DNA from: a virus
Strand: one strand, 5' to 3'
DNA length: 10,646 bases
IMG/VR virus record: IMGVR_UViG_3300018015_000341
This document shows positions 1 through 10,646 of the stretch, piece by piece. The notes below the pieces were generated by a model. It was not told the origin of the DNA. It saw nothing but the letters and a program-made list of their open reading frames with translations, and did no database searches. The translations under genes and the position numbers were made by a program. Position 1 is the stretch's first letter. Every line of letters begins with the position of its first letter.

Positions 1-2010
1 CAGGCTTGTTGCAATAGTATCGTCTGTAATTCTAACACTAAGCACTTCCACATCGTAGATATGCATTCCGTTCTCTTTGAACAAATGTCCAGGTCTTTCA
101 GTTGTCCCATTGGAAATACCTAGTACGGTGTCCCTTATTATATCGGTTGAGCTGTCATAGAATTCTTCAATTCCCTTCTTCTTGATAGCATTGTTGATAA
201 CTGACCTCAAATGCTGAGTTAGCAATTTAACATAATTCTCGACATCGAACCACTTTTCAGGATCGCCAACAAAGTTGACAAGGTACGATAGTCGTATCTC
301 AACCTTGACAAGATCTCTGGTTTCCACAGTAGTTATGTCTGACACTTTGTTGTTTGTTACTCTCAGATATGCAGTCTTAATTAATCTATCGTCACTCTTA
401 GGTTTGCCAGTTGACAACTCCATTATACCAAGAGACTCGTCATACTCAAGAAGTACAGTTTTCGGACCAACGACCACACGGCGGTTTCCTCCCTTGCCTA
501 TTATTAATATTGCATATCCTGTCCAGATGTCAATACTTACCGCCCCAGAATATTTGGTATCGAGAGTTATCATTCTGGGAGGAGTGAACGTTGTTTTTCT
601 GTCTATAGCGTCCCCTGCAAATTTTTCTTGAGAAATTCCCAATCCAAATGTTGTAATATTGTAACCTGGGATGGTACTTCCTGATAAAGATCTGGCATTT
701 CTCATTGCATCGTGTTCTGTAACAAATTCATCGGCTCTCTTGCTACGTGTGACTGACATCATCATTTTGTTATATTCCAATGCCTCATCATTTCCTGGGA
801 ACCATATCGAAGCAATCTTAGGATCTAAGACTCTTCTTACAATTACTTCCTTTCTTGGATCAGGTAGTAGCATTGTCGGCCCTCTCTTCAGTACTATTTC
901 TCCGCTTATACGATTTAATACATAGCGCGCCTCGCCAGCAGGAATCGCTACTGAATGATGTTTCTCCTGGCCATCATATTTAATAATAGCATGCTCAGGT
1001 CTCGGGTAATAAATCATACGATCCTTACCAGTTATAAATAATTCTTCTCCAACTTTATGGTCTTTTTCATCTTCATCTTTGTAATCCGCTATGATCTTGA
1101 TATATAACCCAGATATCTCGTTCAGTTCTATAGCACGAAATTTTTTGGAGTTGTTCTCTGTAATAAATGTTTCAGTTGGCTTAGGGAATACCACTGCAGG
1201 ACCTCTTACATATCTTTTGTTCCCATCTTCATCGAGGAGAATACAATATTCAAGCCTCTATAGAGTTACCGCTTTTCGCACAAAGCTATCGTTGAGGTTT
1301 TTGATATCATCTCTTTCTGGCAATACTTCAATACCAGTTGGGGGAATATAGAAAGATACTTCCGTACCCTTTATTGTTAACTGTTTTCCTGTGGTAAGAT
1401 CTGGTTTAGGTATCTCTTTTTCTTTTATACTTTTATTCTCTTTGTCTTCTTCTGACGTATTTATATCTTTATTTTCAACCTTGATTTCTATATCTTCCTT
1501 ATTAATAGTAACATTTGAAGGTTTGATAACCGCTTCATTCCAATTTTTTGTTGCTTCTTCTTCATTGTAAACGCGAACAAGCAAATATTCGTTGGATTTT
1601 AGATCATGCCCTGGAATAACTTTTGCAATCTGTCCTGCCCAGAGAGGAAATGTGATTGGTCCTCTTATATTAACTTTACGGCCATAGTCAAGTTCTTCCA
1701 TTCCGCTAGATCCTTGTTTAGGATGTTTGTCTTCTCTTGCAGGATTTTCCAGTACTAAATACGAACCATCTTTTGCAACTGGGAATTGTTTAATGGCAAC
1801 CTGAATATCGCATTCTACAAATTCTCTTTTTTCGTCATCATATCTTACAGGCTGATCAGTACCAGCCAATGATGTCTTAAATGGCCCTACGCAAACACCG
1901 ATAATCCCTTTTGTCTTGTCCAATACAAAGGCGAATTGGTTCTGAGCTATAATAAGATCTCTATCTCTCGCCAATCCGCTTCTTAATCTATCTCTTTCAA
2001 ATTCATCCAT
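1..2010 (-). CDS. Major vault protein (MVP)-like protein. The N-terminal part is the 250-aa ORF 1258..2010. The same reading frame continues without further stops through 1..1257 and leaves the window, so the protein is more than 669 aa. The two parts are separated only by a single in-frame TAG at 1258..1260. The gene is either interrupted (pseudogene or sequencing error) or translated by read-through or suppression.
   Basis: I hand-translated the minus strand of 1..1257 in the frame of the 250-aa ORF and found no other stop. The sequence reads ...FVRKAVTL*RLEYCILLDEDGNKRYVRGPAVVFPKPTETFITE.... There are several ~55-aa repeats of the vault pattern (G-x-x-W/L-x-V/I-x-G-P-x-x-Y/F-x-P-x-x-E-V), for example GKQLTIKGTEVSFYIPPTGIEVLPE, EYCILLDEDGNKRYVRGPAVVFPKP and GEIVLKEGPTMLLPDPRKEVIV. 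These match the repeat domains of eukaryotic MVP (compare [38 protein letters not shown]). A SPFH/band-7-like 'shoulder' segment follows (SDITTVETRDLVKVEIRLSYLVNFVGDPEKWFDV...LRSVINNAIKK). The TAG aligns with a position inside a conserved repeat, so a sense codon is expected there. The start has a Shine-Dalgarno: caGGAGAaatacaacATG (ATG = revcomp of 2008..2010). It is not in the ORF track because the C-terminal part has no stop inside the window. Confidence 0.7.
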
Positions 2011-2928: not shown

Positions 2929-3702
2929 TTATCCTGAAATGGCTACTATTTCAATTTCTGGATCTGTCTGTTGTGTGTTTTGAGACAATTCCAGGGGGGT
3001 TTGGTTTTGTACAGCCATCTGATCACTTCTCTCTCCGGTAACTGTTTCAACTGTTTTTTCGATGGATTTAGCTGTTTCTTCATGTTCTTCTGCAGGTTTT
3101 GCCTTTTGTAAACCTTGCTCTTGATCTGCCTTTTGTAAACCTTGATCTTGTTCTGCCTTTTGTAAACATTGCTCTTGCTCTGCCCTTTGTTTGCACATAC
3201 GCAGATATTTTTCAGTGAATTCCATGCCTCTTAGTTCGTACCCTTTGAATATCCCTTTGTTTATTGTTGGATAATCTTTGCACTTTAGACATATGAACTT
3301 TATCGCAGGTCTTGGAGTACTGTTCTTATTATTGTCAGCAATTCTATCTATCTTTGTGACAACACTATATGTTTTGCATTTGTCACAAGGTAAAAGATGT
3401 CCTCTTCTATATTTCGTATGCTTTCCGTCTACCATACATTTGTTCTTGTGCTTCAGCGTACAACCGACAATAATGTCATGTCTGGAACAACTATCGCAAT
3501 CGTTTTTTATATCGTCATTTCTTAGATAATGTTCATTTTTTGGAAAATTTTCGTTTGGTAATAATTTCTTTTTTTCGTCTGTTACTATTTGGTCTATTAA
3601 AGACATTATAGCCTTTTCGAACGTTTCCACTCTACTTTTTTCGCCGTGACCAAACTCTATACATATATTATGCAATATTTCGGAATAAGACTTTTTTTCC
3701 AT
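2929..3702 (-). CDS. Hypothetical Cys-rich protein (257 aa). It has multiple C-x2-C zinc-ribbon-like pairs, then three in-frame 9-aa Q/E-rich repeats, then an acidic tail. Function unknown.
   Basis: Complete ORF with a strong Shine-Dalgarno: aaAAGGAGAGtaaaaaATG (ATG = revcomp 3700..3702). Stop is TAA. Cys pairs: CDSCS...GC...C, PCDKC, ICLKC. The repeat LQKAEQ(E/D)QG is encoded by 27-bp DNA repeats. Confidence 0.6.
   Translation of the reverse strand: MEKKSYSEILHNICIEFGHGEKSRVETFEKAIMSLIDQIVTDEKKKLLPNENFPKNEHYLRNDDIKNDCDSCSRHDIIVGCTLKHKNKCMVDGKHTKYRRGHLLPCDKCKTYSVVTKIDRIADNNKNSTPRPAIKFICLKCKDYPTINKGIFKGYELRGMEFTEKYLRMCKQRAEQEQCLQKAEQDQGLQKADQEQGLQKAKPAEEHEETAKSIEKTVETVTGERSDQMAVQNQTPLELSQNTQQTDPEIEIVAISG
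3101..3190. repeat. In-frame 27-bp tandem repeat, 3 full copies (3101-3127, 3128-3154, 3155-3181) plus a partial fourth, inside the 257-aa CDS.
   Basis: gccttttgtaaaccttgctcttgatct / gccttttgtaaaccttgatcttgttct / gccttttgtaaacattgctcttgctct, with 3-4 mismatches between copies. 27 bp is 9 codons, giving the peptide repeat ...QKAEQEQCLQKAEQDQGLQKADQEQGLQKA.... Confidence 0.85.
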
Positions 3703-3714
3703 TTTTTACTCTCC

Positions 3715-3740
3715 TTTTTTGTTATTCTTTTTTGTTATTC
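3715..3740. promoter_or_regulatory. Perfect 13-bp tandem direct repeat (ttttttgttattc x2; minus-strand GAATAACAAAAAA x2). It sits immediately upstream of the Shine-Dalgarno of the 257-aa gene and is a candidate operator or promoter element.
   Basis: Copies at 3715-3727 and 3728-3740. They share the core AATAACAAA with the repeat pair upstream of the ATPase gene (6477-6518). Confidence 0.4.
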
Positions 3741-3776
3741 TTTTCTGCAGATCAGTTTCGTATAAGTTCCATTATT

Positions 3777-3944: not shown

Positions 3945-6437
3945 CTAACTAAATAATATATTTTCAAATGCTTTTAAATATGGCATACCATTTATGTCTT
4001 CTGCAAACAATGGCATATATATCCTATTGATATCTGGATACATTTTATCAACCATATTTATGTATCTATTTTGGTGATTTCTTCTTGCTTTACAAAATGC
4101 ACAGTCAAGGTTTGACTGAATGTTATTTATCACCATGTTATTGACTTTTACTCCAGCACTATATAGACTTATGACCAGTCTTTTAGTTTCTTCTATTGCC
4201 ATTAAATCAGGAATAGTTACTATCAAGAATTCTGTTTTGTCTTTATCTGTAATCAGCGTGTGTGCCCTATATATGCTTGCACCCAAATTTTTTATAAATG
4301 TATCTATGTCACCAGTTCTTGCTCCCATCAGTTTCATTATACCTTTATATCTATTATGTAATCCTGAAAAGAACATCAGCCAACTATTTACAACATTTGG
4401 CGCTCCCAATAGTCTTAAAGTATGCCCAGTAGGGGCTGTATCAACACATATAGTTCTATATGAGTTGTTATCTATAAACTCTGATAATTTTACCAGGGAC
4501 ATAAATTCGTCTATTCCTGGTATTGTCAGGTCCATTGCATGATCTGCCTCTTTTTCATTTAAGTTGGCTGTCTTTGTAAGCAACTCTCTGATTGCTCCTT
4601 GATTTGCACCCTTGAATTCTCCCATAAGTTGGTCAGCGTCTATCTCAATTGCGTCCAGCGTGTTTGTTATTCTAGTTGGAGTATCTCCAATTTTTATATT
4701 GAACGAGTCACTTATAGAGTGAGCAGGATCTGTTGAAAACAACAATATCTTTCCTCTCTGTCCTGTTTGGACCAATCTTTCTGATAGATGTAAAGCTATC
4801 GTAGATGAAGTCGTAGTATTATGATTAATAATCGAATTCCCTATATATGAGTGGACATCGTCTATTGCCACATCGTACACTCTGATATTTTCATCCTTGA
4901 TCTCTGTTACATTGTCAGTTATGAACTGATCTGCTATCGTTTCCAAATATTCATACTCAGGCAAATACGATACAGGCTTCATTACTGAAAGTATGTGTCT
5001 TAGGGCATATACTGATGGCTGTCCTTTTGTTATATACCAATATATTAATTGTTGGTCATTTTTTAGATATGTTCTGCAACTGACGGATTTCTTCCTGTTC
5101 AATTTGAACATTTTTTCTCCTATAACAAAATCCTCTTGCCATTCTTGCACTATCTTTCCATTTTGACCTAGTATCTTTAATTCCTCATATAACTTATTTA
5201 AAATTTTTCCGATGTTACGATATGTAACATCTGACCATCTGTCTCTGTTTTCTAATATCTTGACACACTCGTTTAGAATTTCTTTTTTTCTTGAAAGACC
5301 GAAGTTTATTATTTCCGAGAATTTAAGTACTTCTCCTCCTAATATAATTAGTCTATAACTTTCTTCGTACTCTCTGATCTCTTCTCTATACTCAAGTTTT
5401 TTGGTACCTTTTTTGCTGGATAACCTTCCAACTATCCCAAAGTTTAATAGCATTATTTGTAATTGTCTACATAGCTCATACGATGAACTATTATATTCTA
5501 CATACTGGTGACTATCGTCACCATTTCCTACTGTTCCGTCACCATCGAATAATGCTCTTATAAAAGATATTTGGGAATCTCTGTCCGCTTGGAGGATGGA
5601 CCATGGGACCTCTTTGTTTTGCGCCAATTTTCTATATCCCAGATAGTACACAAACTCCTTAAAAGCCACAGAGTTTATGTCAACACCGACAAGTTTTTTA
5701 TCAACATATTTTTCACAAGCGTCTATATTGATTGATTTACATGTGGCTAATGATCTATCGATCATCTCTTTATCGTGGCTAGTTATAATAACACTGGTTG
5801 AATCGTCATTTGCTTCTGCAATTATATATCCCAACAATTCTGCTATATCAGGATTCATATAGCTTACATTTTTCAGCGTTTGATTTTCGCAGTTACTTTC
5901 CTTTTTTCTTTTATGGAAGAAGTTCAACTTCAATCTTTCATTAAAAACATTCATATTATATGATATGATTACTTGATCCGACGTAGAAATGTCTTGTAAT
6001 TTTTTAAATCTTAGTTTCCCATTTCCATCTATTATTATTATCCTATGCTCAGGCGTTCCTGATATTTCCAACCCAAGTCTTGTCTTTATGCTTATAACAT
6101 CGCTTTCTCCCATATCATATCTATCTATTATTTTATATTTGCTATAACTCAACTTTGGAGAAATCGATATTATATTATCGACATTCTTTATGTTATCGTC
6201 TTCTTCTTTTAGCATTTCATTAATGTCATCATCGTTTCTATCGTAGATACTGTCATATAGATTTGTCTGTCCACGATCTATATTTCTATTACTGAAATCT
6301 ATTTTCTTGTGAACAATGTCTTCAATCTTTATTATACCTCTATCGGTCAATATTAGAGTATTCCCACGCACACATTTACCAACCCCTCCCTTCCCTCCGA
6401 CAAATACCAATCTTTTATTTTCTAATGTTAATACCAT
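3945..6437 (-). CDS. Get3/ArsA-family (SIMIBI-class) ATPase precursor of 830 aa. The mature extein is about 311 aa. It is a single ArsA-type domain with a CXXC motif, like archaeal and eukaryotic Get3/TRC40. It is interrupted by a 519-aa intein inserted in the P-loop.
   Basis: N-extein: MVLTLENKRLVFVGGKGGVGK (deviant Walker A GKGGVGK). C-extein resumes with TTTSSTIALHLSERLVQTGQRGKILLFSTDPAHSISDSF (ArsA/Get3 STDPAHSLSD motif). It also has ...ICVDTAPTGHTLRLLGAP (the DTAPTGHT signature) and ...NLDCAFCKARRNH (CXXC). The Shine-Dalgarno is ctAGGAGActgaaattaaatATG. Stop is TAG (3945..3947). Confidence 0.88.
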   Translation of the reverse strand: MVLTLENKRLVFVGGKGGVGKCVRGNTLILTDRGIIKIEDIVHKKIDFSNRNIDRGQTNLYDSIYDRNDDDINEMLKEEDDNIKNVDNIISISPKLSYSKYKIIDRYDMGESDVISIKTRLGLEISGTPEHRIIIIDGNGKLRFKKLQDISTSDQVIISYNMNVFNERLKLNFFHKRKKESNCENQTLKNVSYMNPDIAELLGYIIAEANDDSTSVIITSHDKEMIDRSLATCKSINIDACEKYVDKKLVGVDINSVAFKEFVYYLGYRKLAQNKEVPWSILQADRDSQISFIRALFDGDGTVGNGDDSHQYVEYNSSSYELCRQLQIMLLNFGIVGRLSSKKGTKKLEYREEIREYEESYRLIILGGEVLKFSEIINFGLSRKKEILNECVKILENRDRWSDVTYRNIGKILNKLYEELKILGQNGKIVQEWQEDFVIGEKMFKLNRKKSVSCRTYLKNDQQLIYWYITKGQPSVYALRHILSVMKPVSYLPEYEYLETIADQFITDNVTEIKDENIRVYDVAIDDVHSYIGNSIINHNTTTSSTIALHLSERLVQTGQRGKILLFSTDPAHSISDSFNIKIGDTPTRITNTLDAIEIDADQLMGEFKGANQGAIRELLTKTANLNEKEADHAMDLTIPGIDEFMSLVKLSEFIDNNSYRTICVDTAPTGHTLRLLGAPNVVNSWLMFFSGLHNRYKGIMKLMGARTGDIDTFIKNLGASIYRAHTLITDKDKTEFLIVTIPDLMAIEETKRLVISLYSAGVKVNNMVINNIQSNLDCAFCKARRNHQNRYINMVDKMYPDINRIYMPLFAEDINGMPYLKAFENILFS
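4818..6374 (-). mobile_element. Intein (519 aa, residues C22-N540 of the precursor) carrying a LAGLIDADG-family homing-endonuclease domain. It is inserted between GKGGVGK and TTT of the ATPase P-loop.
   Basis: It has the canonical splicing blocks. Block A is Cys1 (CVRGNTLILTDRGIIKIEDI), with the Cys codon at 6372..6374. Block B is TxxH (GTPEHRI). Blocks F/G are VYDVAIDDVHSYIGNSIINHN, ending in HN with +1 Thr at 4815..4817. Two LAGLIDADG motifs are present: ELLGYIIAEAN (about 5808..5837) and FIRALFDGDGTV (about 5529..5564). Removing it restores a contiguous Walker A motif, GKGGVGKTTT. Confidence 0.85.
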
Positions 6438-10121: not shown

Positions 10122-10535
10122 TTAAAATTTTAACCTTGTTATCAATTCGGTAACTGTCATATTTGGTCCAGTTGATTTTTCTATAGAGTTCTCGTCAGTT
10201 TCGAACAGATCATAATGTTCACCAATTTCTACACTTAGTAAGCTAATTTTTTGATATGCTCCTATAATTTCTTCTTTTTTCCATACACCTTGAGAATCGT
10301 AATACTTGTCACCAATTCTCAACATCACATGATGTACCACTTTCTTGTCTAAATCTCCAACAACTGCTACAAGTTTGCCAATGTTAAATATTTCCTTTAA
10401 CAAGATCGCGAATATTCCACAATTGGTAGTTGTCAATTGTAACTCGTCTTTATTTTTTATACTATCTATAAACTCACGAATCTTATCTTGTTCCATACTA
10501 TACATTTTTCTTACCATCCTTATATTTCGATACAA
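10122..10535 (-). CDS. Hypothetical protein of 137 aa as called. The start is uncertain: a TTG is called at 10535, and in-frame ATGs at codons 7, 11 and 14 have AAGGA/GGATGG Shine-Dalgarno-like sequences.
   Basis: Open frame with TAA stop (10122..10124). No motif recognised. It lies immediately downstream of the 17-bp tandem array. Confidence 0.45.
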   Translation of the reverse strand: MYRNIRMVRKMYSMEQDKIREFIDSIKNKDELQLTTTNCGIFAILLKEIFNIGKLVAVVGDLDKKVVHHVMLRIGDKYYDSQGVWKKEEIIGAYQKISLLSVEIGEHYDLFETDENSIEKSTGPNMTVTELITRLKF

Positions 10536-10543
10536 AATTTTTC

Positions 10544-10646
10544 ATATTTCTTCATTCTTGATATTTCTTCATTCTTGATATTTCTTCATTCTTGATATTT
10601 CTTCATTCTTGATATTTCTTCATTCTTGATATTTCTTCATTCTTGA
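10544..10646. repeat. Perfect 17-bp tandem repeat (atatttcttcattcttg), six complete copies from 10544 to 10645. The array continues past the window edge, so the copy number is at least 6. It is iteron-like.
   Basis: The copies are identical: 10544-10560, 10561-10577, 10578-10594, 10595-10611, 10612-10628, 10629-10645. A unit length of 17 is not a multiple of 3, and every frame hits TGA on the minus strand, so it is non-coding. Confidence 0.95.

Follow-up and report, generated by a model that had tools for sequence, protein, structure and literature searches.

A perfect 17-nt tandem array between Thg1-like and YunG-like genes is probably a young, copy-number-variable intergenic repeat of a Borg-like archaeal element

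A stretch of DNA of 10,646 nt (IMG/VR record IMGVR_UViG_3300018015_000341, hereafter the window) ends in six identical, directly abutting copies of a 17-nt unit. The question raised by this locus is whether such an array is a set of sites kept uniform for a binding protein or the product of a recent expansion. A first-pass annotation, made from the sequence alone, had described the array as perfect, AT-rich and non-coding, had placed it upstream of the first gene of a minus-strand block and had proposed that it functions as replication iterons, as a parS-like partition site or as a regulator binding array. The locus consists of the following elements.

10544..10646, minus strand: array of 6 perfect tandem copies of the unit CAAGAATGAAGAAATAT, as read on the coding strand, and 1 further base, ending at the window edge.
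10506..10543, minus strand: 38-nt spacer GAAAAATTTTGTATCGAAATATAAGGATGGTAAGAAAA between the array and the start codon.
10122..10505, minus strand: YunG-like gene (127 aa) downstream of the array, with a borderline match to PF24591 (26.9 bits, the cut-off being 27).

Tandem Repeats Finder reported for positions 10544-10646 a period of 17, 6.1 copies, 100% matches, no indels and a score of 206, and inspection of the raw sequence revealed six identical units followed by one extra base, with which the window ends. The exact first position of the array is 10544, since position 10543 is occupied by C where the repeat needs G and the register is thus broken. The GC content of the unit is 23.5%, compared to ca. 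35% in the window. As read from the sequence, there is one TGA per unit on either strand, and because 17 is coprime to 3, a stop is found in every frame within 51 nt. A perfect array of at least six 17-bp copies that reaches the window edge, is AT-rich and does not code for protein was therefore described correctly by the first-pass annotation. When the window was searched for the 17-mer with up to 3 mismatches allowed, only the six copies of the array were retrieved (chance expectation 0.26; none of 200 shuffled sequences reached six). The window edge cuts the array off after six copies, and the copy number seen in the window is a lower bound.

A tiny open reading frame present in each unit (MKKYQE followed by a stop codon) was dismissed as a by-product of the repeat. 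Genetic code 4 was also considered, all stops in the array being TGA, and was rejected, since the Thg1-like gene located on the other side of the array stops at TGA and the gene calls made with translation table 11 are compact and match the domains of their families. A megablast search with the whole window retrieved no match among phage records. The exact pattern of the array/flank junction was absent from the viral_contigs and genome_contigs collections, and an exact 34-mer comprising two units was absent from metagenome_contigs; apparently, these collections do not include the contigs described below.

Metagenome contigs 99.9-100% identical to the window were recovered by exact look-up of the window proteins. 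In the direction of the genes, the complete spacer consists of the stop codon of the Thg1-like gene, ca. 10 nt of unique sequence, a seed copy CGAGAATGAGGAAATGT, N perfect copies of the unit, the 38-nt spacer and the ATG of the YunG-like gene. The seed copy is identical to the unit at 14 of 17 positions, and all three differences are G/A. The 38-nt spacer starts with a degenerate partial repeat (GAAAAAT versus CAAGAAT of the unit) and contains a T4 tract, a TATA-like sequence AAATATAA and a Shine-Dalgarno-like AGGATGG; judging by these motifs, it houses a putative promoter and a putative ribosome binding site. It is conserved in the sister lineage described below. The gene beyond the array codes for a Thg1-like tRNA-His guanylyltransferase (PF04446, 107 bits; stop codon TGA). 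In the longer contigs, the run of genes on the same strand continues past the array with the Thg1-like gene next in line; the array is thus an internal spacer of a long same-strand gene run and not, as the first-pass annotation had it, the head of a gene block.

The number of perfect copies in contigs 99.9-100% identical to the window was 2 (L001 and L005), 7 (L003, L004, L006 and L007) or 8 (L008 and L010); these three assembled classes are taken from short-read assemblies, and the counts per population are provisional. In full-length contigs, 7-8 perfect copies correspond to 119-136 nt. The upstream flanks of 2-copy contig L005 and 7-copy contig L004 are both identical to that of L003 (4.1 and 7.8 kb compared, respectively). 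In the downstream 10.5 kb, each of L005, L004, L006 and L007 deviates from the window at just one position, a single-nucleotide polymorphism (SNP) that is private to the window. Over ca. 14.6 kb, then, the number of units is the sole difference between 2-copy and 7-copy contigs. The window itself matches the 8-copy contigs perfectly over 7.3 kb, and its private SNP is the only difference from the 7-copy contigs. Extension of the contig, which had been suggested as the way to obtain the full copy number, therefore yields one degenerate copy together with 7 or 8 perfect copies in some contigs and with 2 perfect copies in others, and the suggested comparison of strains reveals that the copy number is variable (2, 7 or 8) among otherwise identical contigs.

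The private SNP of the window falls into a gene whose product recurs below.

1-2010: 5′ part of a gene for major vault protein (876 aa), the first of the genes located at L003 16818-20315.

It is a G-to-T change (coding strand) at window position 1260, which turns codon 251 (1258-1260, minus strand) from GAA into TAA and cuts the 876-aa major vault protein to 250 residues. Contigs L003, L004, L005, L006 and L007 have G at the equivalent position and an intact vault open reading frame. The TAA codon of the window may reflect true nonsense variation, a minority allele or an error in the sequence.

We compared the locus with those of less closely related elements. A sister lineage, represented by 11 contigs (L011 and L041-L050), has neither the Thg1 gene nor the array; in all 11 contigs, one invariant 16-nt proto-unit, CGAGAAGAAAAGATAT, precedes the 38-nt spacer. 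No array is present in distant syntenic relatives, whose YunG-like proteins are 61-83% identical to that of the window. The gene order DUF5788, HTH-like, 137-140-aa gene, Thg1, YunG-like is largely kept in these relatives (L035 is devoid of the last two genes before the YunG-like gene in this order). A homologue of the seed, CTTGAAAACGAAGAAAAGGTG and its variants, is found once per distant relative, at the 3′ end of the Thg1 gene, where it is partly coding. Since the array is absent from sister and distant relatives, and the number of its units is variable, it follows that the array is young, lineage-specific and variable in copy number. It thus arose de novo in a single lineage, starting from a seed at the locus.

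The first-pass annotation had offered two explanations for the perfect identity of the copies, a recent expansion or strong selection for uniform binding sites. The former agrees with the data; the latter does not, for the array is unconserved between relatives. A selected array of binding sites should persist in related elements, and this one does not, which leaves the binding-site reading unsupported. The same annotation had named absence from closely related genomes with no functional consequence as an observation that would refute its reading, and the array is missing from both the sister lineage and the distant syntenic relatives. We therefore consider the copies to be identical because they are recent, not because a protein needs uniform sites.

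One contig of the sister lineage, L011, is a mosaic (L011 1-550 compared to L003 and L041). Upstream of its YunG-like gene there is a sister-type spacer with a single proto-unit and no Thg1, which is 84% identical to L003 there. From the last repeat-unit position onward, L011 shares 99.3% identity with the array-bearing lineage; the identity of L041 to L003 in this part is only ca. 90%. Either co-existing elements have recombined, the junction lying at the repeat locus, or L011 is a chimeric short-k (Logan) contig. The presence or absence of the Thg1-like gene is polymorphic as well (L001 801-1580 compared to L041 9936-10000). In the array-bearing lineage, this gene is bracketed by two similar short sequences, AAAGATCTAGA at its start and AATATCTCGAGA just past its end, and the sister lineage contains a single AAAGATATCGAGA instead, which suggests insertion or deletion of the gene between short direct repeats.

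The way in which the array may have arisen can be outlined as follows. One 17-nt stretch, located at the 3′ end of the Thg1-like gene, would have acted as the seed; it survives as the degenerate copy CGAGAATGAGGAAATGT. A variant of this seed with A for G at three positions (G/A transitions, for which the outgroups indicate mixed polarity) would then have been duplicated head to tail, and from that point on the copy number (2, 7, 8) would have been changing much faster than point mutations accumulate. The mechanism is most likely slipped-strand mispairing during replication or repair: the single copy is stable and two or more copies vary, which is the behavior expected of this process. Slippage driven by hairpins was considered as well. 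As single-stranded DNA, the array folds in the same way as its shuffled versions (z = 0.07), i.e., no better than they do, and plain out-of-register mispairing is thus sufficient.

What replicon carries the array? The identifiers of the JGI samples look like those of the SPRUCE peat project, and the contigs apparently come from wetland/peat metagenomes; searching the literature with the sample and run identifiers retrieved no paper. The GC content is ca. 35%, and the base composition of the coding strand is 39.5% A, 25.5% T, 21.2% G and 13.8% C (A>T>G>C). Up to 20 kb per locus were covered, and all genes called there share one strand; in the window, it is the minus strand that bears all plausible genes, and the GC skew has one sign throughout the window and throughout 20 kb spanning the array. 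GGAG-like motifs precede most start codons. At L003 16818-20315, genes for major vault protein, archaeal histone (model NF043032, 90.6 bits) and an RNase_T-type exonuclease are adjacent to each other, the exonuclease gene adjoining that of the histone. The window and its close relatives also encode an HD phosphohydrolase, a NUDIX protein, DUF5788 and Thg1, and the distant relatives code for multihaem cytochromes, archaeal-type AdoMet synthase, PAS sensor kinases, a type III-A Csm cluster, tRNA-Ile and DUF5788. In L035 (5199-11745), the type III-A Csm CRISPR-Cas effector cluster lies directly downstream of the YunG-like gene; in L032 (3325-3400, 6123-7265), a tRNA-Ile(GAT) gene lies directly upstream of it, and a multihaem cytochrome gene is present as well. 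When the vault protein was compared to GTDB genomes, only bacterial homologues were found (43-52% identity; Riflebacteria, Anaerolineae and Saprospiraceae), and these being the closest GTDB homologues suggests that the vault gene was acquired from bacteria.

Borgs have a GC content of 32-35%, an A/T/G/C composition of 38.4/28.8/20.3/12.5 and one coding strand per replichore, and they replicate from their termini (Schoelmerich et al. 2023, PLoS Biol, PMC9879509). Their histone genes co-occur with genes for predicted vault proteins, the latter being absent from the host, and a gene for a 3′hExo-type exonuclease is present in all Borgs (PMC12660748). The replicon studied here is like Borgs in its low GC content, its A>T>G>C order, its unidirectional genes and its adjacent vault, histone and 3′ exonuclease genes. 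Borgs are linear, 0.6-1.1 Mb in size and bounded by long terminal inverted repeats, and they share 40 syntenic marker proteins (PMC11208441); no termini were seen in our longest related contigs (40-63 kb). New Borgs have been obtained from SPRUCE peat metagenomes, and published peat Borgs are without a clear Methanoperedens signal (PMC11208441). Among the relatives studied here, the genes for multihaem cytochrome, archaeal histone and archaeal-type AdoMet synthase are hints of a Methanoperedens host. Mini-Borgs, which share the repeat style and coding pattern of Borgs, are 52-145 kb long (bioRxiv 10.1101/2023.08.02.551345); the longest related contig in our set is 63 kb. From the composition, gene content and repeat style of contigs of no more than 40-63 kb, the replicon looks like a Borg or a mini-Borg; besides a Borg proper, a mini-Borg or some other related element of archaea is possible. 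It is unlikely to be a eukaryotic giant virus, because of the Shine-Dalgarno-like motifs and the match to the archaeal histone model, and because relatives carry archaeal-type AdoMet synthase, DUF5788 and type III CRISPR-Cas.

The array has the properties described for the tandem repeats of Borgs. Published Borg repeats are perfect and comprise at least 3 units and at least 50 nt (PMC9879509); the array is perfect, arranged head to tail and, within the window alone, 6.1 copies and 103 nt long. The A content of Borg repeats on the coding strand is 48.4%, compared to 38.4% genome-wide (PMC9879509), and that of our unit is 58.8%, compared to 39.5% for the whole coding strand. Borg repeats frequently have flanking partial repeats that are regarded as seeds, and their sequence is essentially unique to each locus (PMC9879509). 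Here, the seed CGAGAATGAGGAAATGT flanks the array on the 5′ side and the partial repeat GAAAAAT (CAAGAAT in the unit) on the 3′ side; with up to 3 mismatches allowed, the window contains no further copy, and the units of the other repeats in related loci are unrelated. The number of units in Borg repeats varies within populations and between the closest Borgs, and the homologous regions of other Borgs are without the repeat (PMC9879509); our array evolves fast in the same sense, N being 2, 7 or 8 in the short-read assemblies and the array being absent from related elements. Finally, the unit length of intergenic Borg repeats is mostly not divisible by three (PMC9879509), as is the case with our intergenic 17-nt unit.

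Additional repeats are present in the window and in related contigs.

3714..3744, minus strand: perfect intergenic repeat AATAACAAAAAAG (coding strand), 13 nt × 2.4, 69% A, just upstream of the ribosome binding site of a gene for a 257-aa protein.
3100..3190, minus strand: in-frame repeat inside the 257-aa open reading frame, 27 nt × 3.4, 90% identical.

The latter repeat codes for 9-aa units (QKAEQEQCL / QKAEQDQGL / QKADQEQGL) and is a genic counterpart of the repeat class. Contig L033 contains an intergenic repeat of 18 nt × 4.1. L038 (7378-7416) contains a perfect A-rich intergenic repeat, TAGAACTAAAAAG, of 13 nt × 3; in L039, which otherwise matches L038, the following gene begins 26 nt earlier, which equals two units, and no array was reported by a repeat scan. 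Judged from this pair of sequences, it is a second case of unit-number variation in the element family. At the end of contig L041 (12000-12141) there is a perfect A-rich repeat, AAAAGAAAATAGATT, of 15 nt × at least 9.5 (67% A). It lies downstream of a gene that is homologous to the 104-aa gene of the window and is truncated, and the window lineage has no array at that place. At L003 19448-19527, two spaced direct copies of CAGAATAAGAATAGA were found (78-nt spacer before the histone gene); these are dispersed and not tandem.

With the published criteria, the element family has 3 perfect repeats per 86 kb of non-redundant sequence, i.e., 3.5 per 100 kb in what is a small sample; all of them are intergenic, and their A content is 59-67%. 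The density of repeats in Borgs is about 2-7 regions per 100 kb (PMC11208441), which greatly exceeds that of cellular genomes. Loci of bacterial homologues of the vault gene (309 kb), which were used as a control, contain 0.32 repeats per 100 kb.

No tested feature distinguishes the array from the perfect repeats of Borgs (PMC9879509; Al-Shayeb et al. 2022, PMC9605863), the membership of our replicon among published Borgs being deduced from fragments. The spacer between the Thg1 and YunG-like genes is not singled out in these papers. Perfect repeats that are pervasive, both genic and intergenic, and variable in unit number within populations are also a point of likeness with mini-Borgs (10.1101/2023.08.02.551345) and Nucleocytoviricota (PMC12660748). 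We conclude that the array is very probably a young intergenic variable-number tandem repeat (VNTR) of the kind found in Borgs and mini-Borgs of Methanoperedens-type archaea. That it is a Borg-type repeat generated by slippage and has no required binding function is, in our estimate, probable. The repeat class as such has already been published, and this array is one more member of it, possibly one contained in deposited peat Borg genomes.

A young VNTR may nevertheless affect its neighbors or may be neutral. Since the array lies between the stop codon of Thg1 and the presumed core promoter and ribosome binding site of the YunG-like gene, any effect is most likely to be exerted in cis. The number of units would set the distance from the upstream gene to the presumed promoter and, if the array is transcribed, the length of an RNA tail or leader; conceivable routes are altered spacing upstream of the promoter and a longer, A/G-rich, unstructured 3′ UTR or read-through RNA. 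A stronger version of this idea is that the 17-mers recruit a transcription factor or TBP/TFB and thereby tune the YunG-like gene, or serve as an A/G-rich scaffold RNA, the copy number acting as a rheostat. Each copy contains a TATA-like AAATAT, and the array stops 38 nt before the start codon, immediately 5′ of the TATA-like and Shine-Dalgarno-like motifs. A small HTH-like protein of 114 aa, for which HTH matches were sub-threshold only, is encoded two genes upstream of Thg1. The authors of the Borg studies propose regulatory or architectural RNA roles for intergenic repeats (PMC9879509). However, there is no array in the sister lineage or in any of the distant syntenic relatives, where the flanking and HTH-like genes largely persist. 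The distance between the intergenic repeats of the family and the following start codon is variable (about 13, 38, 60 and 116 nt), and the array as RNA is less structured than shuffled controls, folding worse than 200 out of 200 shuffles (z = +3.3). An Rfam search with the array returned no match at E-values up to 1, and together with the folding this led us to reject a structured noncoding RNA. Recruitment of a factor or scaffolding by the repeat RNA is thus unlikely to be what the array is for.

Like the VNTRs of bacterial contingency loci, the array is a slippage-prone tract upstream of a gene start whose unit number differs between otherwise identical genomes. In bacterial contingency loci, the units of promoter VNTRs are usually 1-7 nt long, and on/off effects on expression have been demonstrated. 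Unlike them, our array has a 17-nt unit and belongs to an archaeal element, and an effect of it on expression is only putative. Slippage between 2 and 8 copies might conceivably act as a rheostat for expression of both the Thg1-like and YunG-like genes, via binding of TBP/TFB or another factor or via a scaffold of repeat RNA, which we likewise regard as unlikely. If true, such a rheostat would be a heritable and rapidly reversible expression switch in a genome almost devoid of transcription regulators.

Under the reading of the first-pass annotation, the array would be a set of replication-origin iterons, or else a parS-like centromere, to which Rep or ParB binds. In the iterons of plasmids R6K, P1 and F, as well as in sopC and parC, units of ca. 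17-22 bp are directly reiterated in an AT-rich setting. The array resembles plasmid and phage iterons and centromere repeats in its 17-bp unit length, its head-to-tail reiteration and its AT-richness, and a gene for a P-loop ATPase is found ca. 4 kb downstream in the gene direction.

3945-6437, minus strand: gene for a GET3/ArsA-family ATPase (TIGR00345, 214 bits), split by an intein.

The intein (ca. 520 aa, with a LAGLIDADG homing-endonuclease domain) is inserted right after the P-loop sequence GKGGVGKC. This nearest ATPase scores 214 bits with TIGR00345, but only 15.7 with the ParA model, the cut-off of which is 180; it is separated from the array by six genes, and distant relative L038 keeps the intein-bearing GET3/ArsA gene without the 17-nt array. 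The gene beyond the array, which had been expected to code for Rep, ParB or a regulator, is Thg1-like instead, and no Rep, ParB or initiator family was found in 20 kb of context. Neither did the GC skew, which had been recommended as a check, show an inflection: it stays positive, and the cumulative skew climbs steadily over 20 kb spanning the array. Replication of published Borgs begins at the termini (PMC9879509). The window contains no dispersed copies of the 17-mer, the copy number ranges from 2 to 8, and close relatives have no array. Since the units abut at a 17-bp period (1.6 helical turns), successive sites would not be on one face of the helix. Thus, in contrast to iterons and centromere repeats, the array is without an adjacent rep or par gene, a skew inflection or conservation, and its copy number is unstable. 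The proposal of iterons, a parS-like site or a regulator array finds no support in these data; a bound origin or centromere is highly improbable, and we conclude that the array does not serve as an origin, as a set of iterons or as a centromere.

Equally improbable is that a short repeat was expanded by the assembler at the end of a contig: the array of the window does touch the window edge, L002 begins 30 nt inside the array, the offset expected from a k = 31 graph (this k being assumed), L007 begins inside the seed copy, and automatic short-read assemblies can collapse or miscount such repeat units, as the authors of the Borg study point out (PMC9879509), but eight contigs from different samples (L001, L003, L004, L005, L006, L008, L010 and, with a partial seed, L007; some are ENA records with names beginning with k141_ and some are from JGI/IMG) contain the array together with both unique flanks. 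Since it is flanked on both sides by unique sequence in independent contigs of different samples, the array is real and not the assembly artefact against which the first-pass annotation had cautioned. Its existence is certain; the exact copy number per population is uncertain, and the 2-copy alleles could be collapsed assemblies.

The array thus reveals no new origin, centromere or regulatory system. As a young VNTR, it marks the window as belonging to a Borg-like extrachromosomal element of archaea. It also presents, in otherwise identical DNA, a clean allelic series consisting of the single proto-unit, the seed plus 2 copies, the seed plus 7 copies and the seed plus 8 copies. This series could help to test how Borg repeats are seeded and expanded and what effect the number of units has on neighboring genes.
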